From assembly GCA_014239775.1 (NCBI GenBank), contig JAAZYG010000039.1, forward strand, positions 6,134 to 70,133: 64,000 nucleotides of DNA, read 5' to 3'. Origin of the DNA: Candidatus Uhrbacteria bacterium (GTDB lineage: Bacteria > Patescibacteriota > Patescibacteriia > UBA9934 > GWF2-40-263). The notes under the pieces are model-generated. The model did no database searches. It was not told where the DNA came from and saw only the letters and a program-made list of their open reading frames with translations. The translations under genes were made by a program, and so were the position numbers. Shown here one piece after another: positions 1,097 through 45,224 of the stretch (position 1 is the stretch's first letter; each line of letters begins with the position of its first letter).

Positions 1097-3856
1097 CTAT
1101 TTACCATGACATTTTTTGTATTTTTTTCCACTACCACAGGAACACGGATCATTGCGTCCAATTTTTGAATGTCCTGAATTATTAACAACCTTTGACCCAC
1201 TTTGACCACCATTCATTGTTTTTGCAGCACCTGACAAGACAACACCTGCACGGTTCAATAAAGATTTACTCAACTCAGCTTGAACTTTCATGTCAACTGA
1301 GTGTTTTGCATACTTAAAAAACGTATAAGTTATTTCATGATTTATTGATCCTAATAGATGCTGAAATAAGTGATATCCCTCTTTTTTATATTCAAGAAGA
1401 GGATCTCTTTGTCCATAGCCACGCAATCCAATACCTGTTCTTAATGCACGCATTGCTTCTAAATGATCAATCCATAGCATATCAACCGCACGTAGAATTA
1501 CTGCCTTTTCAATATTATACAACTCTTTCTTGTCTTGAAACAAATCAGACAGCTCATCATACCTTGCATTAATAACTGTCATTATTTTTTCTATAATATT
1601 TGTTCTACCCTGAATAACATCTTTTTTGTCTTTTGATGCGGAAATCGATATGTTATTTATCTCATTTATTTGATTTTCATTAAGTGGAATTATCGTGTTT
1701 ACTGTTTCCGTAATCTCCTTAATATTCCAATCTGGTTTTTGTTTTTCTACACCTTTTTCAAACACCTCACCTGTATGAAACAAAACAACTTGTTCTACCT
1801 CACCTTCTATAATGTCAGTTATACGTGCCCGAATTTTTTCAGGTGTATTATCAAATGTATTTAGCACCTCAGACCTCCTAGCATATACAACTTCCCTATG
1901 TTTATTTAAAACATCATCGTACTCGAGAAGGTGTTTTCTTGAATCAAAGTTATGTCCTTCAACTCTCTCTTGAGCTTTTTCAACAGAACTTGTGATCATT
2001 TTATTTTCAATAGGCATGTCATCTGGAATACCAAGCTTGTCCATCATGCCCCTAGCTCTATCAGATCCGAAAATACGCATCAACTCATCCTCCATTGATA
2101 AATAAAATTGAGTAGATCCTGGATCACCTTGCCTACCAGAACGTCCACGAAGCTGATTGTCTATTCGGCGTGATTCATGTCTTTCTGTTCCAATAACATG
2201 CAATCCTCCCAAAACCTTAACACCCTCTTCTTCATCTGGTGTACATGGATTTCCACCAAGTTTAATATCAACACCACGACCAGCCATGTTTGTTGCAAGT
2301 GTCACAGACCCTTTGCGTCCAGCCTGTGCAATAATATCAGCTTCTCTTGTATGATTTTTTGCGTTTAAAATCTCATGCTTAACACCTTCTTGTTTTAGTA
2401 ATTCGTGCAGTAATTCATTCTTTTCAACAGATGCTGTACCAACCAAAACAGGCTGACCTTTTTCAGCTTTTTCTTGTATGTCTTTAATAACTGACATTAG
2501 TTTTCCTTTTTCGCTTTTATAAACCTTATCCACACTATCTAATCTACCTATTGGTTTATTGGTTGGAATCTCCACTACATCAAGTTCATATATCTTTGAA
2601 AACTCTTCTGCCTCAGTTGCAGCAGTTCCTGTCATTCCAGACAATTTGTCATACATCCTAAATAAATTTTGAAATGTAATTGTTGCAAGTGTCTGACTCT
2701 CTCTTTTTATTTCTGTACCTTCTTTTGCCTCTATTGCCTGATGTATTCCTTCTGAAAAACGCCTACCAGGCATTAGACGACCAGTAAACTCATCAACAAT
2801 TACCACCTCATCATCTTTTACTATGTAATGAATATCTTTTTTATAATTAGCACGAGCACGCAAGGCAGTATCTGCATAACGTTGATATGTTCCTTGATCT
2901 ACTGCGTACAAATTGTCTATACCTAGAATCTGTTCAATTTTTTCAATTCCTGCATCTGTAAGCGTAGAAGCTCTCATTTTTTCATCAATGTTGAAATCCT
3001 CATTTTCATGTAATACTTTAACTATATCTGCAAATCTGTAATACAATTTATTTGACTCCTCTGCTGGTGCAGAAATAATAAGAGGAGTTCTTGCCTCATC
3101 AATTAAAATAGAATCTATCTCATCGATAATCGCATAATGTAATTCCCCCATAACCATATCTTCTTTTGATTGAGACATATTGTCTCTCAAGAAATCAAAA
3201 CCAAATTGATTATTAGTACCGTATGTTATGTCAGCTGCATATGCTTCTTTTCGTGAACATGGCTTTGCATAATCCTCTTTAGCATGAAACGATCCAGTCT
3301 GATTGCTACTTGAATCATTATCTATTTCTGCATCAGCACCTTGCTCATACTTATATGATTGATCATATACAAAACTATCGAATTGCTGGATGCAACCAAC
3401 TGTCATTCCTAGAAAATCATATATTTGCCCCATCCAAATAGCATCTCTCATTGCAAGATAGTCATTCACAGTAACCAAGTGACACCCCTTGCCTTTCAAT
3501 GCATTTAAATACAATGGAAGTGTTGATGTAAGAGTCTTACCTTCACCTGTTCTCATCTCTGCAATTCCAGATTTATGCATAACCCAACCACCCATAATTT
3601 GAACATCAAAATGTCTTTGTGCAAGTGTCCTTTTTGACGCCTCACGCACAACAGCAAATGCCTCATGTGCTATATCATCAAGAGTTTCACCTTTTTTTAA
3701 CCTATCCTTAAACTCAATAGTTTTTTGCTTTAAACCATTATTTGAAAGCTGTTCTAGTTCAGATTCCAATATATTAATCTTATCAACCTCCTTTCTAAGA
3801 TTATGCAACATCTTCTTATTTGGGTCTCCGAAAAGTAATTTCATTATCTTGCTCAT
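1097..3856 (-). CDS. secA: preprotein translocase ATPase SecA
   Basis: 919 aa with DEAD-like motor motifs (MRTGEGKTL, LIDEARTPLIIS) and a C-terminal Zn-binding CSCGSGKKYKKCHG tail. Confidence 0.95.
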   Translation of the reverse strand: MSKIMKLLFGDPNKKMLHNLRKEVDKINILESELEQLSNNGLKQKTIEFKDRLKKGETLDDIAHEAFAVVREASKRTLAQRHFDVQIMGGWVMHKSGIAEMRTGEGKTLTSTLPLYLNALKGKGCHLVTVNDYLAMRDAIWMGQIYDFLGMTVGCIQQFDSFVYDQSYKYEQGADAEIDNDSSSNQTGSFHAKEDYAKPCSRKEAYAADITYGTNNQFGFDFLRDNMSQSKEDMVMGELHYAIIDEIDSILIDEARTPLIISAPAEESNKLYYRFADIVKVLHENEDFNIDEKMRASTLTDAGIEKIEQILGIDNLYAVDQGTYQRYADTALRARANYKKDIHYIVKDDEVVIVDEFTGRLMPGRRFSEGIHQAIEAKEGTEIKRESQTLATITFQNLFRMYDKLSGMTGTAATEAEEFSKIYELDVVEIPTNKPIGRLDSVDKVYKSEKGKLMSVIKDIQEKAEKGQPVLVGTASVEKNELLHELLKQEGVKHEILNAKNHTREADIIAQAGRKGSVTLATNMAGRGVDIKLGGNPCTPDEEEGVKVLGGLHVIGTERHESRRIDNQLRGRSGRQGDPGSTQFYLSMEDELMRIFGSDRARGMMDKLGIPDDMPIENKMITSSVEKAQERVEGHNFDSRKHLLEYDDVLNKHREVVYARRSEVLNTFDNTPEKIRARITDIIEGEVEQVVLFHTGEVFEKGVEKQKPDWNIKEITETVNTIIPLNENQINEINNISISASKDKKDVIQGRTNIIEKIMTVINARYDELSDLFQDKKELYNIEKAVILRAVDMLWIDHLEAMRALRTGIGLRGYGQRDPLLEYKKEGYHLFQHLLGSINHEITYTFFKYAKHSVDMKVQAELSKSLLNRAGVVLSGAAKTMNGGQSGSKVVNNSGHSKIGRNDPCSCGSGKKYKKCHGK

Positions 3857-9399: not shown

Positions 9400-10656
9400 T
9401 TATTTTATCAAAGTTGAGGTTATTTCTAAAATTATTCCACCAGTAAACAACATTATAAGTAGCCAGGTTAATATGTTTGGAAAATTTAAACATTTATGCT
9501 TTTTACAAACAGGACTTTTCTTTAGTCTCCAATACGTTAGAGCAATTAATACACCCAACACACCACCAAACACCGCACCAACAAAACCTATAATATCTAT
9601 CAATTCTCTTAAACCCAATAGAAACAGTAATACTGGCACAGAAACGACTGCAAACCATGCATGATTTTGTTTAAGATTATAGTCAAATCTAAAGGTGTTT
9701 AACAGCTCAATCCCCAATATTGTATAGATTGAAAGTATTGTTAATGATCCTAAAAATGTAGCCAATACTCTAACAGAATCACCAAGTATTGGCACTAATC
9801 CCTCAAACGCAGCTTGTGTTGTATCTGCCCCAGTAACCCCAACAACTGCTGCAGAAAAAAGTATATATAAACTAACTATAAGAAACATCCCCATCATTAT
9901 AACGTGACCAATTTTATTCTCTTGTTTAACACCCAATACATCCTTTAATTCTGGCACAATACCTATTCCTGCTAAAGAAAATAATACAACACCATATGGC
10001 AAAAATGCATTTGAAAAATTTATAGTTGCATAATTTGACATATCAATATGTGGAATGCTCACTAATATCAAAAATAGGAATAATAATAACAATCCTATTA
10101 CTATGATTATTTCTGCTTTTGCTGCAAATTCTAGGCCGCGATAAATAAAAAAACTGGCGATAGATGCGATTAATAAGCTGTAAATCATTTCTCCACCTCC
10201 AAACACAGGATTTAGTAGTATGTGCGCAAATTTACCTCCAACAATAATATAAGCAACCATTGCACCCCAAACACCAGCAGATATTGCAACGATTGTTACC
10301 TTTGACCAAAAATTACCTAAATATATTTTGACATAACCAACAAGCCTGTGTCTTCCCCTTGTCTGCAACACAACTTCAGCTAACATTAGTTGTAAAAAGA
10401 GCATTAGACTGCCTATTATCAAGACCTCCATCAAACCAAGCATGAAACCAGCTTTAGAAAAAACATAAGGCAAACCAAAAATACCAACACCAACCATGCC
10501 TCCTACCATTACGCCTACAGCGCGAAAAAATTTTATATTAAAATTAGTCACAACTTTTTCCCAATTATACCACAACTCTGCCCTTGATTTGCATTTAAAT
10601 AATGTTAAGATGCCATTGGAAAAAATATGGCACAATTTGAAAAAATACCACCGCAA
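9400..10656 (-). CDS. amino acid permease-like transporter (APC-superfamily-like, about 11 TM); start uncertain
   Basis: GVMVGGMVGVGIFGLPYVFSKAGF N-terminal motif typical of aromatic/amino-acid permeases; multiple TM helices; internal Mets near 10509/10497 are alternative starts. Confidence 0.6.
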   Translation of the reverse strand: MRWYFFKLCHIFSNGILTLFKCKSRAELWYNWEKVVTNFNIKFFRAVGVMVGGMVGVGIFGLPYVFSKAGFMLGLMEVLIIGSLMLFLQLMLAEVVLQTRGRHRLVGYVKIYLGNFWSKVTIVAISAGVWGAMVAYIIVGGKFAHILLNPVFGGGEMIYSLLIASIASFFIYRGLEFAAKAEIIIVIGLLLLFLFLILVSIPHIDMSNYATINFSNAFLPYGVVLFSLAGIGIVPELKDVLGVKQENKIGHVIMMGMFLIVSLYILFSAAVVGVTGADTTQAAFEGLVPILGDSVRVLATFLGSLTILSIYTILGIELLNTFRFDYNLKQNHAWFAVVSVPVLLFLLGLRELIDIIGFVGAVFGGVLGVLIALTYWRLKKSPVCKKHKCLNFPNILTWLLIMLFTGGIILEITSTLIK

Positions 10657-23295: not shown

Positions 23296-25059
23296 TTAAT
23301 TTGAACTGTTTAATGCTGCTGTTCTGGCATTATTCTCTTGATTTTTTATAAGTAATGCTTTCTTTTTCTCTGTATTTTTATATACTTTTAAGGCCTCCTT
23401 CTGTCTTGATTCTGCATTTTTTTTATCTTGTATTCTCTGTTTATAAATCTTGTTAACCACGTCAACCGGTAATGATTCAGAATAACCATCAGAACCATCC
23501 CAACTAATTAAGGTAACCACTCCGTCCTCAATGGTTGCGACTGTCATTTTGATCTCCTTTCCGCTTCTTGTTTTTATTGGCAATATATCATCTAATTTTA
23601 CAAGAGTATCTGACTGAATTTCTTCTAGTTTTATTCTATCTACTTGCTGATGTATTGACCCCTCGTTTTGATTGGGTACATCTAAGGATACGAAATACTT
23701 TTCATTTTGTGGAATATAATGACTAATCTTCCAATCTAAAGATGAGCCTTCAACTTTTACACTATCACCTTCTTTGTGCCTTAGTGGGAGTTCTGATGAA
23801 ATAATTTCACTTGTGACACGTGAAATCCAATAATCGTGATTTGATAGTTTACCTTCTAACTGATTGAGTTTTATTTGTTCTTCTACAGACTCAGCTCCTG
23901 CAAGTTTCATATCAATGATCATGCTCTCAATTTGTTTATATGACTTTTCCCACTGCTGAATATCAGATTCTGAGTATTGTGTAGTCTCTGGCACGTTATC
24001 ATTTTCATGTGATCTCATCATGTTTGGACCACGTTCTTTTACATTGTATACAATTGCAGCAATATCATCGCCCTTTGATCTTTGATTATTATCCTTGCCT
24101 CCCATAGAAATGTTTAACGCAGCCTCCTGTAAAGCTTTTTCAGCTGTACGGTCTGATCCATTTTGAAACATTATTTTTTTTATATCATCTTCAAGCATTT
24201 GATCATGAATTCCATCAGACGTTAATATCAATCTATCTCCTGGCATTACATCAAATTTCTGGATATTTGCATCAGAAGCACCTTCTTGTGCACCAACAGA
24301 TTTGGTTATAATGTTCCTGTAATTGTAATACATCCTTAAATCATCTGGAACTTCATCTATTCCCACAGCCTGGTCAACAAGTTTTGCATCTTCTTTTGAA
24401 ATATTGCCTTTACGTAATGCTTCGGTTACAAAACTATCATCTGCTGTGATTTGTAAGATTTCTTTACCTCTCATGACATAAATTCTACTGTCACCTACAT
24501 TTGTAATATAAAAACGCTGAGCACCGTTTGGCAACTCTACCAATTTACCTACAGAAGCAGTGGTTGCTGAATCATCACGAATCAATCCAGATTCCTTCAA
24601 TCTATCTGCAGAGGTTTTAATTTTTCTATCAGCTTCTGTCAAAGCTTTTTTTAATTGTGCCTCAGCAAGCTTGTCTATATATAAAATTTTTTGTTCATGA
24701 GACAATTTATCATTATCACCTATTGCCTTAATTTGATCATCAAGTTTTTGACCAACCTCTTCTTGAACAGATATACCTAACTCTCGTGACGCAAGCCAAC
24801 CTGCATTTGAAGATACTCCGTCAGCAACTAAAAATAAACCTCTATCGGGATCATTTACTTTTACATCTTCACATCTATCCTTTCTTTCTCTTGATCCAGA
24901 CTTTCTTAAACCTAACTCAGGTTGCTCACCAACATTTGTAGTTTTTTCTCTAAATTCTTGATCAATTTTATTAAACTCATCATCTAAAGATTTTGGTTTT
25001 TCAATTTGTCTTTCTCGTGACTGTTCCATATTAACTTTATTATAACAAAAACCGTCCAA
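23296..25059 (-). CDS. PP2C-family Ser/Thr phosphatase with about 240-aa C-terminal domain of unknown function
   Basis: PP2C motifs LFLVADGVSS, ITNVGDSRIYV, LILTSDGIHD, KGDDIAAIV in residues about 60-345; C-terminal region has no recognisable motif. Confidence 0.7.
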   Translation of the reverse strand: MDGFCYNKVNMEQSRERQIEKPKSLDDEFNKIDQEFREKTTNVGEQPELGLRKSGSRERKDRCEDVKVNDPDRGLFLVADGVSSNAGWLASRELGISVQEEVGQKLDDQIKAIGDNDKLSHEQKILYIDKLAEAQLKKALTEADRKIKTSADRLKESGLIRDDSATTASVGKLVELPNGAQRFYITNVGDSRIYVMRGKEILQITADDSFVTEALRKGNISKEDAKLVDQAVGIDEVPDDLRMYYNYRNIITKSVGAQEGASDANIQKFDVMPGDRLILTSDGIHDQMLEDDIKKIMFQNGSDRTAEKALQEAALNISMGGKDNNQRSKGDDIAAIVYNVKERGPNMMRSHENDNVPETTQYSESDIQQWEKSYKQIESMIIDMKLAGAESVEEQIKLNQLEGKLSNHDYWISRVTSEIISSELPLRHKEGDSVKVEGSSLDWKISHYIPQNEKYFVSLDVPNQNEGSIHQQVDRIKLEEIQSDTLVKLDDILPIKTRSGKEIKMTVATIEDGVVTLISWDGSDGYSESLPVDVVNKIYKQRIQDKKNAESRQKEALKVYKNTEKKKALLIKNQENNARTAALNSSN

Positions 25060-27301: not shown

Positions 27302-27751
27302 ATGGAGGTGCTTATAATGAGTCAACGAAGTAGAATTCTGGCAACACTACCCATTTCAGGCTCAGTTGTTCTTTATGTCGATAACAGTGAACCGCTGAAG
27401 GATTCAAACTATGACATGTATAATGGATGGTTTGAAAGTGGAGATATTGTTTTTGAGAACGTATCTGCACACATTGCACTGCGTCTTGTTGAACAGATAT
27501 TGAATCCGGAAGGAAAAATTCCTGACATGACTGAGGATTTTGGGTCTTTTATAACACCAGTATATTGGTATTGTATTGATAACGATTGGTTTGTTGTTGG
27601 TCTTGAAAATATAGCAATGAGAAGTAATGAGAACATGGTTGTTATTGAGTATGCTGGTCAAGAGATTACAAAAAATCTAACAATTAACCAAGTTTTTCAA
27701 CGACTTTCCTCTAGACTAAATAGGATTTATAATATTATACCTATTTCATAA
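27302..27751 (+). CDS. hypothetical protein (149 aa)
   Basis: Isolated + strand ORF with downstream hairpin+T7; no motif. Confidence 0.4.
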   Translation: MEVLIMSQRSRILATLPISGSVVLYVDNSEPLKDSNYDMYNGWFESGDIVFENVSAHIALRLVEQILNPEGKIPDMTEDFGSFITPVYWYCIDNDWFVVGLENIAMRSNENMVVIEYAGQEITKNLTINQVFQRLSSRLNRIYNIIPIS

Positions 27752-27801
27752 CTGACACCTTAATTTAAGGGGTCTTTTTTTATACAAAAATACCTCCATT
27801 A

Positions 27802-28293
27802 TTACATGGAGGGAGTGTGGCCAAACATTTCTAATGCACCATCTTCATCGTCTTTATAAAGATCGAAAGGAATCTGCGAAGTTCTTATTATTGTGTTGAA
27901 ATCTGAGAAATTAGACCCATGCCTGTTTCCAAGCTCTTTTCTATGCCATTTGTATAAATGATAGTAACTGCCACGTTGTATGGCGTAACTAAGATAACCA
28001 TTTCTGTCACGCATGATCCAAATACGAATAAACGCACGATCATTATAAAACGTAAGTCTCGCTCTACCCTCCAAACTTACATAGCCAGTATCTATAAAAA
28101 TCGTATCTTCTACCGGCAAACACATGTCATAATCGTCCTCAAGAAGATACATTGGGTCTGTTACATCACACCTAATCAATATGTGATAGCCGTTATGTGT
28201 ATTTGTGCTATCACCAAGCTCTTGAATGTCTAGTGCAATAAGACGCTCACCTGTCTCATAATTGTATGTAGCGATCTTGTAATCGCAGGCCAT
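27802..28293 (-). CDS. hypothetical protein (163 aa), higher-GC segment
   Basis: ORF; no motif; local GC above window average. Confidence 0.4.
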   Translation of the reverse strand: MACDYKIATYNYETGERLIALDIQELGDSTNTHNGYHILIRCDVTDPMYLLEDDYDMCLPVEDTIFIDTGYVSLEGRARLTFYNDRAFIRIWIMRDRNGYLSYAIQRGSYYHLYKWHRKELGNRHGSNFSDFNTIIRTSQIPFDLYKDDEDGALEMFGHTPSM

Positions 28294-28370
28294 TCTTTTC
28301 TCCTGAGATATAGTTAATAGGACGCTATAGTATATTTACGCTACCTATAAGCATGTCTTTTGTCAATATA

Positions 28371-28400
28371 AATAAAAAGACTGATGTTTAAACATCAGTC
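28371..28400 (-). terminator. Rho-independent terminator downstream of cNMP-binding gene
   Basis: Perfect 22-nt palindrome GACTGATGTTTAAACATCAGTC followed on minus strand by T5. Confidence 0.55.
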
Positions 28401-28423
28401 AGAAATACATAATTTAGAATACT

Positions 28424-28912
28424 CTAAACATCCATTATGGCACCATACCTCTTTGCAAATTGAACAGCAGGCTTCAATGAATGCAAGTACTCATTACTGT
28501 CACGTAAATATCCATGAGCGATCTTCAACAACCTCTCAAGAATAATCATATACAACTCTGGAGATGTTTTCTTTAGTCCTGTGATTGTACTATACGGCAC
28601 ACACAAAACCCTTACACCACCAATACCTGCCATACATGTTGCAGTTCTGTTTGCACCACTAATACCATAGGACATCTCCCCAATAACAACACCGGCGCCA
28701 ATATCCTTGAGTTTAGTGACGCCCCTTGCACCGCTTTTAATCACCTGTGCAACGCCGTCAACAATGATATAGAGAGAATCTGCAGTATCCTCATCCTTGA
28801 TAAACAGATCTCCCCTGTCAAAATTTAGATATTCTGATCCCCCAATAATCAAAGCTTGCTGCTCTTGTGTCAGGTTACTAAACAAGAAAGTACCTTCCAG
28901 ATCGATGTGCAT
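28424..28912 (-). CDS. stand-alone cyclic-nucleotide-binding (CAP/Crp-effector-type) domain protein
   Basis: 162 aa; FLFSNLTQEQQALI...GDLFIKDEDTADSLYIIVDGVAQV...IGEMSY matches the cNMP-binding beta-roll; no DNA-binding HTH. Confidence 0.6.
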   Translation of the reverse strand: MHIDLEGTFLFSNLTQEQQALIIGGSEYLNFDRGDLFIKDEDTADSLYIIVDGVAQVIKSGARGVTKLKDIGAGVVIGEMSYGISGANRTATCMAGIGGVRVLCVPYSTITGLKKTSPELYMIILERLLKIAHGYLRDSNEYLHSLKPAVQFAKRYGAIMDV

Positions 28913-29017
28913 CCGATCTCCATCTGTAGATTATTAATATGTACTGAACAATGTGTTCTAAATGATGTTATCTCTAGAAGATGTATAAGTCAATATATAT
29001 CACTTTTATACTTTATA

Positions 29018-29046
29018 TTGACTAAAGAGTCTGTGCATCGTATTAT
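29018..29046 (+). promoter_or_regulatory. candidate sigma70-like promoter for tRNA-Glu (TTGACT-17-TATTAT)
   Basis: Hexamers with 17-nt spacer about 40 nt upstream of the tRNA 5' end. Confidence 0.35.
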
Positions 29047-29086
29047 ATTGCCGCTACACATTTTCCTGCACTAGCCATTTAATTAT

Positions 29087-29161
29087 GGCCCCATCGTCTA
29101 ACGGCTAGGACGCCAGGTTCTCATCCTGGAAATCGGGGTTCGATTCCCCGTGGGGTCACCA
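29087..29161 (+). tRNA. tRNA-Glu (anticodon CUC), CCA encoded
   Basis: Cloverleaf: acceptor GGCCCCA/TGGGGTC, D-arm GTCTAACGGCTAGGAC, anticodon stem CCAGG/CCTGG with loop TTCTCAT, T-arm GGGGTTCGATTCCCC, discriminator A + CCA. Confidence 0.85.
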
Positions 29162-29199
29162 ACTAAAACGCTCACCGCAAGGTGGGCGTTTTAGTTGGT
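29158..29199 (+). other. 19-bp stem / GCAA-loop hairpin starting inside tRNA 3' end
   Basis: ACCAACTAAAACGCTCACC-GCAA-GGTGGGCGTTTTAGTTGGT; 18 Watson-Crick + 1 G·U pair; followed by A9. Confidence 0.6.
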
Positions 29200-29200
29200 G

Positions 29201-29240
29201 TAAAAAAAAATCGGAGAAATGAGTAGCCACTTCTCCGATT
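29201..29240 (-). terminator. Rho-independent terminator of minus-strand CHAP/holin-like operon
   Basis: 10-bp stem AATCGGAGAA/TTCTCCGATT followed on minus strand by T8-9. Confidence 0.55.
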
Positions 29241-29288
29241 AAGGATTTTGTTTGAGCCTGTCTAACTATAGGCTATGTATTGTTACGA

Positions 29289-29552
29289 TCATTCAAATCG
29301 GCTATTCAATTTCTCAATGCGATCGTTTTCTTCTTGAATTGCAGCGTCACGCCTGGCACGATATGCTGGATCAAGCTTGGCTCGAACTTGGTCGACCATG
29401 ATCCCCAGAAGAAATACAGCAGCAAAGAAGACAGGTACCACAAACATTAAGAGAGTAAGTAGCACTACATCATCACCACTATAACTATCACCACCAGCCA
29501 AGGCTGTAGATGACACAAGCATCACACTGAATACTCCAAAAATTCTATTCAC
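29289..29552 (-). CDS. small membrane protein with highly charged C-terminal tail (holin-like topology)
   Basis: 87 aa; two hydrophobic segments then DQVRAKLDPAYRARRDAAIQEENDRIEKL; overlaps CHAP gene by 4 nt. Confidence 0.4.
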   Translation of the reverse strand: MNRIFGVFSVMLVSSTALAGGDSYSGDDVVLLTLLMFVVPVFFAAVFLLGIMVDQVRAKLDPAYRARRDAAIQEENDRIEKLNSRFE

Positions 29553-30157
29553 TCCTCTTTCTCCTGTGGCCGTGACCAGCCTGCTATAGGTTGTAAATAA
29601 GAACCTCGTTCAACAAAATACGTGTTATTTATATTGTTTATATTTAGTCTATCAGACCAAATATACCTTTTAAACACCAAATACCTTGTTGATACAATGT
29701 TCTGTTGAACAATAGAAATATATCCCTGTAACAAATCAACTTTTGTAATCAAGGCAACATGACCAACAGACCCATCATTGTCACCTCCATCAAAAATCAA
29801 AATGTCATATTTTTGTGGTGACACAGAAGAACCGTTAGGGTAAGCAATTAACCCTTTGGTTTTTGCATTCCAAAAATATGAATCTGCATGTCCTGTTTTT
29901 GTCATATTTCTATGACCCATTTGGCCATATGCTCGGTTGATCAACTCAACACATTGAAATTCAAGTCCGTATTTTCCGCGATGATTTGCACCATTTGCAG
30001 AATAAATTGGCCATCCTTCAAATCGCCCAAGCTGTGTCCCATGTTTAGGCAATCGGATTAAGCTCCAACCAACTGACAACATATGACGTGTGTAGCCTAT
30101 ACACAGAATGATTGTGACCATCAAAATGAAAACGAATAAAAACTTATACCTTTTCAT
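29549..30157 (-). CDS. CHAP-domain peptidoglycan amidase/peptidase with N-terminal signal anchor
   Basis: NGANHRGKYGLEFQCVELINRAY (catalytic Cys), YDILIFDGG, GHVALITKV (catalytic His): the CHAP pattern. Confidence 0.7.
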   Translation of the reverse strand: MKRYKFLFVFILMVTIILCIGYTRHMLSVGWSLIRLPKHGTQLGRFEGWPIYSANGANHRGKYGLEFQCVELINRAYGQMGHRNMTKTGHADSYFWNAKTKGLIAYPNGSSVSPQKYDILIFDGGDNDGSVGHVALITKVDLLQGYISIVQQNIVSTRYLVFKRYIWSDRLNINNINNTYFVERGSYLQPIAGWSRPQEKEE

Positions 30158-31142
30158 TTGCCTCTTCCTTCAAAAAAACTGGATACATGTCATAACCATT
30201 TCTGAAATAATACAGAAATGTTTTTTCAATTAATGCATCCGTTTTTTTAAAAATAGGGAAAATGCTTTTGGGTAAAAACCTTGGTTTACTAGGAAATACC
30301 AAGAACATTTTCATCATATCGTAGGACATGATATTTTGTTTAAAATCTAGGTGTCTTTCAGTTAAAGGTAAACGTAATTCAACAGCTTCAAGATAGTCGT
30401 AATTAGGAGGAGCAGAACGAGATTTTTTGTGAACCTCAGTAATCCATACTGGATTTAAATCCCCTTCTTCGAACAGCTCTTCAAACGTTTCATACCGCAA
30501 AGGATCTGACCCGTCATTGTTGTGCATAAAATGCAAAGCCTTGCCTCTAATAATTAAGACAACGTGAGAATTAATATCTGGCCCTTCAGCCTGAATCTTT
30601 TCCCAATAACTTGTCTTTTCCCAAAGCAAGCCTACAACATATATTTTGTCACGACTAAAAGAATAGTGCACAACAGTGTTAACGAGTGTTTCTTTTACCT
30701 CTTGGCTTATAACACCGTCTTCATTATATCTATCAGATGCATCCCACAAAGTTGAAAGTTTGCGATTGTTTGATACACAACTTTCACATAATTTGTGAGA
30801 CCTCAATTCCCATGCACTAGCATGAACCAAATTTACACCAGTAAACAAACTGATGTACTTGGTTACCGCAGCTGAACACAAATCATTATCATATTCCCAC
30901 CACGGCAAAATTCTGGGTATCCGTCCACTGCGCTCCATTTGATTAATCAAAGCGGAACGATCCTCAAGATCAAATTTATTTACCATTGACCAAAAGGTTA
31001 ATTCCTCAGAACGAGCAGCAGATCTTACCTTAGGATAATTGACATAACACCAAATAAGAACAATCATCATCACAAATGTGACAATCATGAAAGGAACGAT
31101 GGCACGAAGAGCAATGTATCTAGCTTTTGCCAGTAATCGCAT
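30144..31142 (-). CDS. hypothetical membrane-anchored protein (332 aa), first gene of the CHAP operon
   Basis: N-terminal TM; conserved-looking Cys (DNDLCSAAV) and His (SHVVLIIRG) could indicate a papain-like fold, but unproven. Confidence 0.4.
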   Translation of the reverse strand: MRLLAKARYIALRAIVPFMIVTFVMMIVLIWCYVNYPKVRSAARSEELTFWSMVNKFDLEDRSALINQMERSGRIPRILPWWEYDNDLCSAAVTKYISLFTGVNLVHASAWELRSHKLCESCVSNNRKLSTLWDASDRYNEDGVISQEVKETLVNTVVHYSFSRDKIYVVGLLWEKTSYWEKIQAEGPDINSHVVLIIRGKALHFMHNNDGSDPLRYETFEELFEEGDLNPVWITEVHKKSRSAPPNYDYLEAVELRLPLTERHLDFKQNIMSYDMMKMFLVFPSKPRFLPKSIFPIFKKTDALIEKTFLYYFRNGYDMYPVFLKEEANEKV

Positions 31143-31328
31143 TTCACCTCCTTGTAAAGAAAATATTTATCGTGCTGTTTTTGCTTACTACTTATAAACA
31201 AGCAAAAGAAACAAGATAAATAAAAAGTGCATCATAAAATAAGACGTCTTAATTTAGCATAAAAAAGGCCTTTTGTCAATAACTTTATGTGATAAACTGA
31301 TAAAATCAAACATAAAAAATATTTCTAT

Positions 31329-44444: not shown

Positions 44445-44473
44445 TTGACATTTAGTAAAAAACATGCTATATT
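44445..44473 (+). promoter_or_regulatory. strong sigma70-like promoter (TTGACA-17-TATATT)
   Basis: Consensus -35 with 17-nt spacer; about 110-nt leader to the ATG at 44583. Confidence 0.45.
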
Positions 44474-44582
44474 ATTGCACTGTCCACGCGCAGTGGGTCA
44501 GGTAGGTACACACATTCTTATTTTGAGAATAAACAACAAACAAGCTACGTGCCTAGCTTACAATTTAGAAGGAGTGGTAACA

Positions 44583-45224
44583 ATGCCTCTACATAGGACT
44601 ACTGTAATTGATCGGCTTTGCAAACGCGAAGCACTCATGTTTGAGCATGAGAATCCACCACAAAAATCTGGGAATGACCCGATTGTTGTTAGAGCTTATG
44701 AACTTCAACGGTTTACAAATGTTGTAATCGAAGTTCCAAACAGCTCCGAAATCAACACCGTTGAAACCGCAGGTCCTGCTGGTGAATATGTGCACACCTC
44801 CATCAATGGAGTTGATGTACATTTTCGAAAGGGTATGAAGGTTGTTCCAGGCGAAGTCACTGTTGGAGACATCGTCATTTATGTGAAAACATGGGAACCA
44901 AAGACGTCTGATAAGAGTAGAAACGTGCATCGTAATTACAGTCTCTGCATCAACGTAGAGACTGTAAGTAACAACAATGAGCCTGAGCAACGCTTGTATA
45001 TAAGTGATACTGCCGCTCGGACCTACAAACGACGATTCATGGATCTTTCCGGACCTGAAAGGTACTGCCACCTCTCAAAGGATCGCAGTCGCAATCAGGA
45101 CGTTCAAGTTCTTCCACTCAACAAGCCTACTCGACTTGTTGATACAACTACGACTCAATCTCGTGAGTCCAATCCTCAGCACACACAAATGGCTTATGCC
45201 ATGCGTGAAGCTGGTCTTGTTTAG
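44583..45224 (+). CDS. hypothetical protein (213 aa) in locally higher-GC segment; start set at ATG with AAGGAG RBS
   Basis: Listed ORF begins at TTG 44445, which coincides with the -35 box; ATG 44583 has an RBS 8 nt upstream; no motif recognised. Confidence 0.5.
   Translation: MPLHRTTVIDRLCKREALMFEHENPPQKSGNDPIVVRAYELQRFTNVVIEVPNSSEINTVETAGPAGEYVHTSINGVDVHFRKGMKVVPGEVTVGDIVIYVKTWEPKTSDKSRNVHRNYSLCINVETVSNNNEPEQRLYISDTAARTYKRRFMDLSGPERYCHLSKDRSRNQDVQVLPLNKPTRLVDTTTTQSRESNPQHTQMAYAMREAGLV

Follow-up and report, generated by a model that had tools for sequence, protein, structure and literature searches.

The stretch analysed here is a window of 64,000 nucleotides (nt) from the genome of a Candidatus Uhrbacteria bacterium (contig JAAZYG010000039.1, positions 6,134 to 70,133 of the forward strand; the coordinates below are those of the window), and the subject is an operon of three overlapping genes on its minus strand, close to a gene for tRNA-Glu. 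Gene 1 (30144..31142) codes for a protein of 332 amino acids (aa) with an N-terminal transmembrane (TM) anchor and a predicted NlpC/P60-like papain-fold cysteine peptidase domain, gene 2 (29549..30157) for a CHAP-domain amidase/peptidase of 202 aa that is of the glutathionylspermidine (Gsp) amidase type and also has an N-terminal TM anchor, and gene 3 (29289..29552) for a mini-protein of 87 aa that is predicted to be exported. Genes 1 and 2 overlap by 14 nt and genes 2 and 3 by 4 nt, and the GTG start of gene 3 sits within the stop region of gene 2, with GGAGAAAGAGGAG just upstream of the GTG. A consensus scan indicates a promoter-like site on the minus strand (TTGACA, 17 nt, TG-TAAATT; 31251..31279), which has 10 of 12 consensus matches plus the TG extension and is presumably active. 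At the other end lies an intrinsic terminator (29202..29240, minus strand), consisting of a hairpin of 14 pairs at 29240..29209 and a run of nine T residues (T9) directly after it. The tRNA-Glu with anticodon CTC (29087-29161, plus strand; Rfam score 60.5 bits) is a neighbour outside the operon and occupies, together with its own downstream hairpin, positions 29087..29198; it is the only tRNA that ARAGORN and Rfam detect in the window, and it and the three open reading frames (ORFs) are convergent. A previous sequence-only reading had described a tRNA-Glu, an overlapping three-gene operon on the minus strand downstream of it and a strong hairpin with T9 ending that operon, and all of this is borne out, the tRNA by ARAGORN and Rfam, the operon by the ORF coordinates and overlaps, and the terminator by a terminator scan and by direct reading of the sequence. 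The three genes are one chromosomal operon with a promoter-like site, translationally coupled overlaps and an intrinsic terminator.

The 332-aa protein has no match in Pfam, NCBIfam or PHROG, and a comparison of its family profile with the sequences of the Protein Data Bank (PDB) returned only noise, for example thyroxine-binding globulin; because these searches were uninformative, its identity rests on the predicted fold. The AlphaFold2 (AF2) model (predicted local distance difference test, pLDDT, 87.6; predicted template modelling score, pTM, 0.85) displays a long N-terminal helix (residues 2-54) that represents a TM helix and a stalk, the N-terminus being rich in Lys/Arg ahead of the TM helix. 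In the same model Cys89 opens helix 89-101, His193 is located in strand 192-198 and His204 in the adjacent strand 201-205, and a C39 peptidase domain is among the fold neighbours. Homologues form 22 clusters at 90% identity and are about 45% identical to the window protein, and every homologue with an organism name is from Uhrbacteria or Patescibacteria; a profile search of 1.84 billion representatives gave 12 with E < 1e-10 and 32 with E < 1e-3. Residues C89, A110-W111, N125, N191-S192-H193 and W233 do not vary, not even among the remotest relatives, and at least 90% of the sequences retain His204, relatives with a fused CHAP domain included. At the level of the fold, not of the sequence, we read the 332-aa protein as a divergent NlpC/P60-like papain-fold cysteine peptidase with a putative Cys-His-His triad. 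The membrane-anchored protein with a possible Cys/His pair that had been noticed at this position is therefore confirmed, the pair being the invariant Cys89 and His193. When compared with NlpC/P60 enzymes (C40; MepS/Spr, LytE, CwlO), the 332-aa protein lacks the sequence-level Pfam or NCBIfam match, has about double the size of a C40 domain, with extra helical and strand elements, and, unlike the comparison set, is anchored in the membrane through its long N-terminal helix.

The 202-aa protein is matched by Pfam CHAP (PF05257) over residues 62-153 (E = 3.3e-11), the score of 44 bits lying above the cut-off of 26. In its family (23 sequences) C69, H133 and Q152-N153 are invariant, and in Gsp amidase these catalytic residues have the motifs Cys, GHVA and EQN as their aligned counterparts. 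The protein and all its homologues start with a Lys/Arg-rich N-terminus followed by one TM helix, and the signal-anchored CHAP enzyme with catalytic Cys/His motifs that had been proposed earlier is thus supported by the Pfam score, by the invariant Cys69 and His133 and by the N-terminal TM helix. The same reading had considered a lysis module next to a tRNA gene as a sign of a prophage remnant, in this case a degenerate cassette of holin and endolysin integrated at tRNA-Glu. In favour of this alternative, the CHAP protein weakly matches PHROG endolysin families (E = 1e-7 to 1e-2). However, from the structural comparison (AF2 model with pLDDT 89.4) it is evident that its nearest relatives are glutathionylspermidine and trypanothione amidases and not endolysins, as CHAP domains from endolysins and autolysins score at most 9.5. 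When the CHAP family profile was compared with the PDB, the best match was the amidase domain of E. coli Gsp synthetase/amidase (GspSA; E = 2.9e-13) and no endolysin was found below an E value of 0.01, and NCBIfam also hints at a Gsp-amidase relationship. The CHAP protein belongs to the Gsp-amidase structural subgroup within the CHAP family.

The closest known systems to the CHAP protein are E. coli GspSA (PDB 3A2Z, 3A30, 2IO7) and trypanothione synthetase-amidase (2VPM), from which it differs in that the synthetase domain is missing: no Gsp or trypanothione synthetase (ATP-grasp) was found among the window genes scanned, and none is fused to the 202-aa protein. Whereas enzymes of the GspSA type are cytoplasmic, the CHAP protein is membrane-anchored and predicted to face outward, where glutathionylspermidine is not expected, and unlike GspSA it is paired with a second peptidase and an exported mini-protein. 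Because of this anchored outward placement and the different partners, its substrate probably differs from that of Gsp amidase.

For the 87-aa protein no matches were found in Pfam, NCBIfam or PHROG, holins included. Its layout can be described as a signal peptide (residues 1-19, ending in ALA|GG), the stretch GGDSYSGDD, one TM helix and a charged tail of 34 residues. In the related loci checked, with the exception of one (L017), one to three tandem small ORFs of 43-105 aa follow the CHAP gene, and nearly all of them share a short positive N-terminus, a hydrophobic core, an AxA-type site and then (G/D/S)G, with junctions such as ALA|GG, AMA|GG, AFA|GG, AYA|GG and VFA|DGG. Past the junction there are 6-20 residues rich in Gly/Asp/Tyr and often containing Cys; a single TM helix follows, and the tail is short and in most cases basic. 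In several homologues the uncharged hydrophobic core comprises only 5-9 residues, and because such cores are too short for a membrane span, the first segment reads as a Sec signal peptide and not as the first TM helix of a holin. The 87-aa protein is predicted to be an exported mini-protein with a cleavable Sec signal peptide that is retained as a single-pass membrane protein. Its hydrophobic segments and charged tail had been taken as a two-TM, holin-like topology and would speak for a phage lysis cassette; the charged tail is indeed present, but the first hydrophobic segment appears to be an AxA|GG signal peptide of the Sec type, and this predicted cleavable signal together with the missing holin match speaks against such a cassette.

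A scan of 310 kb for the mini-protein pattern gave 28 matching ORFs, 21 of which cluster directly behind a CHAP gene, in regions that make up 2.8% of the strand positions; the remaining seven have no TM helix and appear spurious. Several relatives have the gene as two or three paralogues in tandem, namely L004 (9577-10052), L008 (2821-3404), L012 (9565-10033), L016 (9487-9896) and L010 (9436-9797), and in the window the mini-protein is single-copy and without the Cys that is common in homologues. In Kuenenbacteria, a gene in which both enzymes are fused is followed by a 43-aa ORF, MKKRHVLFFSVLFAVMMLAGTVNA|GGGGGYDPGGCGCNISATE, which encodes a comparable mini-protein that lacks a TM helix, the product being a soluble peptide of 19 residues, GGGGGYDPGGCGCNISATE (also given as the GGGGGYDPGGCGC peptide). 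Two other types of leader were considered for the mini-proteins and rejected: a C39-type double-glycine leader, as a classical hydrophobic Sec signal with AxA is present and the acidic amphipathic GG-leader pattern is absent, and a lipoprotein signal, as there is no lipobox at the end of the signal peptide.

The conservation of the operon was studied in 17 loci from metagenomes and from genomes of GTDB species. Genes for the 332-like protein and the CHAP protein are adjacent and in the same order in all 17, and the trio is found in differing housekeeping neighbourhoods in at least 13 other Uhrbacteria genomes. Neighbours in the related loci include rpsP, rpsF-ssb-rpsR, genes for elongation factor P (EF-P), a methyltransferase, glutamate synthase, a Xer-like recombinase and aminoacyl-tRNA synthetases; when the 19 nearby and all 61 window proteins were compared, none of the other window genes was found beside the operon in the 17 loci. 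The relatives available are either fragments at 99-100% identity or sequences at about 45% identity, with nothing intermediate. The DnaK protein encoded in the window is 77-84% identical to the matches listed, of which those with organism names are all Candidatus Uhrbacteria or 'Patescibacteria group', and its identity of 78-84% to Uhrbacteria DnaK indicates that the host and the operon relatives are from the same lineage.

The more distant matches of the 332-aa profile (456-566 aa) are single proteins consisting of an N-terminal TM helix, a 332-like domain and a CHAP domain. In these fusion proteins Cys89 and His193 are kept, as is His204 in most, and their CHAP domains carry motifs of the same subtype, YGLE(F/Y)QCVE, GHVA, QQN and GW(S/A)R. 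Named examples are from Candidatus Kuenenbacteria (NQT50195.1) and Candidatus Magasanikbacteria (MCX6780720.1), both encoded among housekeeping genes, and source names such as 'CHAP domain-containing protein' or 'surface antigen' were seen only on the fused proteins. The fusion in sister lineages is strong evidence that the two enzymes act together and on the same side of the membrane. In one CHAP homologue (P0047, 246 aa) a 332-like motif, '…LSALDDEVCAAAVVN…', is contained in an insertion that separates the TM helix from the CHAP domain, and the protein looks like a truncated fusion. Some fusion proteins (P0076, P0077, P0082 and P0089) possess an extra conserved C-terminal module of 60-70 residues, …R(T/S)xGANLEATFACNxW…H(K/R)(V/I)YPxQV(Y/F)x(V/I)CGW, for which Pfam gave no match in the three scanned (P0076, P0077, P0082), and in P0084 and P0085 this module seems to replace most of the CHAP domain.

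The sequence-only reading had also noted by eye a GC content of roughly 40-45% around the tRNA as compared with about 33% for the window. A rise is real, and its magnitude is smaller: the segment 27800-31150 has 38.3% GC against 34.4% for the window, about four percentage points above the mean, which is the maximum among all windows of 3351 bp in the stretch, and single genes within the segment range from 36.4% to 43.2%. For the five genes between 27802 and 31142 the GC content at third codon positions (GC3) is 0.305-0.393, with 0.36 and 0.39 for the two neighbours on the other side of the tRNA, whereas the mean over 61 window ORFs is 0.247 (standard deviation 0.053). A run of five such genes occurs in 0.1-0.7% of gene-order permutations, and likewise when four-fold degenerate sites are used, so the GC3 run is non-random. 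The tetranucleotide deviation of the segment is in the top 5-6% of windows only and not the largest, regions at about 18-19 kb and about 38 kb being more deviant.

These data bear on the possibility that the five genes (27802-31142) are an islet of non-phage origin acquired from a GC-richer relative, a proposal that concerns origin only and fits any function. It is favoured by the GC3 run, which is unlikely by chance (P ~0.001-0.007), by the fact that all known operon relatives are from genomes of 41-65% GC, by an operon location that varies from genome to genome and by a tRNA that follows the operon within about 700 bp in 3 of about 13 distinct loci. However, in 13 of 14 genomes the homologous operon has a higher GC content than the regions flanking it, and its GC content tracks that of the host (r = 0.88), so that the excess looks like a trait of the family rather than the signal of a local island. 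The excess shared among the hosts is not explained by recent transfer, as all homologues are only about 45% identical and no recent donor is visible. In addition, neither a mobility gene nor an att repeat was found, and there are high-GC3 genes elsewhere in the window, including the one for thioredoxin. In L001, L006, L007, L008, L009 and L015 the operon GC3 is above that of flanking genes by 0.1-0.25. In most hosts the raised GC looks like a trait of the gene family, and it is not evidence of an island here; acquisition of the five genes as an islet is improbable. Candidate causes of a family-wide excess of GC at synonymous sites are expression level, a feature of the mRNA and repeated transfer.

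Most of the remaining evidence on the prophage alternative comes from the surroundings of the operon and from phage collections. Besides the points already given, the 3' end of the tRNA points at the cassette and GC3 is locally raised, but the excess is family-wide. No integrase or phage gene was detected among the window genes scanned, and the flanking genes have no PHROG matches. The final 23-27 nt of the tRNA, which integration at this site would be expected to duplicate, occur only once in the 64 kb even when up to three mismatches are allowed, and direct repeats in the region 24-36 kb are short AT-rich pairs at chance level. The caveat of the sequence-only reading, namely that no integrase or att repeat is found and that the segment may not be mobile at all, therefore stands. 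A 16-nt AT-rich direct repeat, CAA(T/G)ATAAATAAAAAG, with 15 of 16 positions identical (28364-28379 and 31212-31227), brackets the cNMP-binding gene (described below), the tRNA and the operon; with 13 repeat pairs like it in 12 kb, it is probably due to chance.

The comparison with phage sequences gave a similar result. Relatives of the 332-aa protein are absent from 50,697 phage records and from IMG/VR. A tblastn search of the same phage records with the CHAP protein produced a single match, a misfiled Salmonella record with a Gsp synthetase/amidase gene, and in IMG/VR only domain-level matches with about 30% identity were obtained. Phage cassettes of holin and endolysin, including those of pinholin and signal-anchor-release (SAR) endolysin, do resemble the trio superficially, since in the trio, too, a compact operon of overlapping genes encodes a small membrane protein whose tail is charged, next to a CHAP enzyme with a signal anchor. 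The trio differs from them in that the phage context is absent, the CHAP protein is not of the endolysin type, an extra 332-aa peptidase is present which is itself missing from phage collections, and the first hydrophobic segment of the small protein reads as a signal peptide; unlike a phage lysis cassette, the trio is a chromosomal operon whose conservation spans a bacterial lineage, being kept in housekeeping contexts of many genomes and fused in others. With phage genes, relatives of the 332-aa protein in phage records and a holin match all lacking, the interpretation as a prophage remnant is not upheld, and we regard it as very improbable.

The gene content of the window is in agreement with this. 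Near neighbours encode a Na+/H+ exchanger with a TrkA-N domain, a PP2C phosphatase and cNMP-binding, CYTH, DUF5671, DUF1294 and SAM-hydroxide-adenosyltransferase-like proteins; further out are thioredoxin, PurA, HrcA and DnaK, and beyond these SecA, MurB, two Mur ligases, an MraY-like transferase, a class B penicillin-binding protein (transpeptidase), DnaB, ClpB, TGT and ThiI. A class II ribonucleotide reductase and HflX are also encoded. The window is core chromosome of a peptidoglycan-making bacterium, and its genes for peptidoglycan synthesis imply that the organism has a sacculus to remodel.

Taken together, we consider it likely that the operon as a whole encodes an envelope-hydrolase module, and the best explanation overall, which we hold with somewhat better than even confidence, is a membrane-tethered pair of envelope amidases/peptidases together with a small partner or substrate. 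We take it most likely to be an envelope operon restricted to one lineage, with twin peptidases and a conserved mini-protein. Two distinct cysteine hydrolases of the papain fold would be placed on the outer face of the cytoplasmic membrane, each held by its N-terminal signal-anchor helix. This outward topology of both catalytic domains is predicted from the positive-inside rule, because Lys/Arg-rich N-termini precede the TM helices and because the small proteins of the operon carry Sec-type signals. The product of gene 3 would be exported by means of its cleavable Sec signal peptide and stay as a single-pass mini-protein, whose new N-terminus would be Gly-Gly followed by a short acidic Tyr-rich stretch. 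The two enzymes might then cooperate on two different amide or peptide bonds of the envelope, with stem-peptide or cross-link bonds of the cell's own peptidoglycan as the most likely targets during growth and division, and the mini-protein might be a partner that positions or regulates the enzymes, or else their substrate. The proposal follows the pattern of membrane-controlled autolysins of the NlpC/P60 and CHAP types such as CwlO, LytE and PcsB. For the version in which the module remodels the producer's own wall, the chances appear about even.

Several observations weigh against this proposal. Peptidoglycan as the substrate is deduced from the fold alone, and the closest relatives of the CHAP protein cleave a glycine-polyamine amide and not peptidoglycan. 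The one to three tandem copies of the mini-protein gene and the homologue without a TM helix fit a substrate better than a fixed subunit. The position of the operon is different in every genome, and its GC3, which exceeds that of the neighbours in most hosts, could reflect transfer. More than 120 Uhrbacteria-like DnaK clusters compare with 22 clusters of the 332-aa protein at 90% identity, and such sparseness of the family suggests an accessory rather than a universal housekeeping function.

A patchy, lineage-restricted family would also be expected for an interaction trait, and the predicted outward orientation of both enzymes is compatible with surface hydrolases that open the cell wall of an attached host or harvest peptides from it. 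Cultivated Patescibacteria are episymbionts, which adds to the appeal of such a host-directed weapon or scavenging device. Short linkers, however, tie both enzymes to the membrane of the producer, and it is hard to picture how they would reach through its own wall. Genes for a secretion system, pilus or adhesin were not found beside the operon in any of the loci, and an immunity-like gene is not evident either, unless the mini-protein has this role. We judge host-directed action, the alternative named in the sequence-only reading, to be unlikely. The episymbiotic lifestyle of cultivated Patescibacteria is also stated in an abstract (PMC12206443).

A further alternative starts from the mini-proteins, which could be the substrates of the two peptidases, their Gly-Gly end or ectodomain being trimmed or being transpeptidated to the wall or some other molecule. 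What all mini-proteins keep is the AxA|(G/D/S)G junction and an ectodomain of Gly/Asp/Tyr, often with Cys, while the remaining sequence varies; a number of tandem copies that varies, here between one and three, is often seen for precursor peptides, and the Kuenenbacteria homologue is the soluble peptide of 19 residues mentioned above. The closest relatives of the CHAP protein form an acyl-enzyme on a glycine carbonyl-amine amide, as known from E. coli GspSA, and the fold neighbours include double-glycine peptidases of the C39 type. All of this is circumstantial; moreover, the signal-peptidase site on its own partly explains the conservation of AxA|GG, the window mini-protein is without the Cys seen in many homologues, and we know of no system with this architecture. 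Processing or anchoring of peptides is thus doubtful, more so than an attack on a host. The same low confidence applies to a more elaborate version, a three-part surface system of Uhrbacteria, Kuenenbacteria and Magasanikbacteria, in which Gly-rich mini-proteins would be substrates of the peptidase pair that expose Gly-Gly after signal cleavage and would serve either as transpeptidation acceptors linking the membrane to the wall (sortase- or Lpp-like) or as precursors of small secreted Cys-containing peptides, with the CHAP enzyme supplying its acyl-enzyme chemistry on a glycine-linked amide.

Coming back to the favoured envelope-hydrolase operon, known hydrolases with two domains or membrane partners are the CHAP and amidase lysins of the LysK type, PcsB/FtsEX, CwlO/FtsEX, LytH/ActH and SagB/SpdC. 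The operon resembles these systems in that two hydrolytic activities, fused in sister lineages, would be directed to one substrate, and in that the enzymes are membrane-tethered beside a small membrane protein. Homology to FtsEX, ActH or SpdC is absent, and the partner in the operon is a Gly-rich mini-protein of 45-105 aa with a signal peptide, which has not been described for those systems. Cell-wall-binding domains (SH3b, LysM) were not detected by Pfam in the operon products. In searches of the literature on CHAP or peptidoglycan hydrolases of Patescibacteria and Uhrbacteria, no such module was found.

On the other side of the tRNA, the minus-strand segment 27802..28912 encodes a protein of 163 aa with unassigned function and a stand-alone cyclic nucleotide monophosphate (cNMP)-binding protein of 162 aa, neighbours that share the raised GC3 and that were not found beside the operon in any related locus. 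No relatives of the 163-aa protein were found in viral or Joint Genome Institute (JGI) metagenome scans. The 162-aa protein (28424-28912, minus strand) matches Pfam cNMP_binding (E = 2.6e-10), and in PADLOC it is best matched by the sensor domains of Pycsar/TIR effectors (E = 7e-11). An effector domain is absent from the protein, and a cyclase was not found nearby. PADLOC reported no defence system, the similarity of 28424-28912 being merely that of a generic cNMP domain, and a PycTM match on the TM helix of the 332-aa protein is sub-threshold. A 149-aa protein (27302-27751, plus strand) gave a SAPI 'mobile pathogenicity island' match (E = 0.027) that was dismissed as noise, as its 14.5 bits are below the cut-off of 25. 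In a 587-aa protein (23296-25059, minus strand), the first 340 residues contain a weakly matched PP2C/SpoIIE phosphatase domain; its long C-terminal half matches nothing. The ORF with the highest GC content in the window is located elsewhere, at 44445-45224 on the plus strand (43.5%, GC3 0.37), where no Pfam match was obtained and where a 160-aa antisense ORF (44589-45071) overlaps it, with a local GC peak of 0.409.

Some observations concern the ends of the operon in related loci. At 10539-10647, L004 contains a tRNA-Glu(CTC) that is identical to that of the window in 75 of 75 positions and whose downstream hairpin is conserved too; it lies about 100-650 bp downstream of the operon and on the operon's strand, whereas the arrangement in the window is convergent. 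In L008, genes for tRNA-Lys and tRNA-Arg (3500-3720) come after the operon, and altogether a tRNA within about 700 bp downstream was seen in 3 of about 13 distinct loci. A 27-nt stretch at the promoter-like site (31255-31281) shares 93% identity with a stretch upstream of the L004 operon (L004 7924-7950), and it also resembles L004 5884-5914, upstream of another L004 gene; it may correspond to a strong, lineage-typical promoter consensus.

For the prediction of prophages, the locus indicates that a CHAP gene and a gene for a small membrane protein beside a tRNA are not sufficient. The 332-aa proteins define an unannotated family of predicted peptidases for which there is no Pfam model, and in the CHAP protein an enzyme of the Gsp-amidase type is predicted to have been relocated to the cell surface, while conserved gene order and fusion connect both enzymes with a family of exported, Gly-rich mini-proteins. 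The genomes of Patescibacteria are tiny, and the ways in which these bacteria construct, remodel or use their wall are largely obscure; in an uncultivated lineage, the operon offers a concrete candidate, open to testing, for remodelling of the envelope or for interaction with a host.

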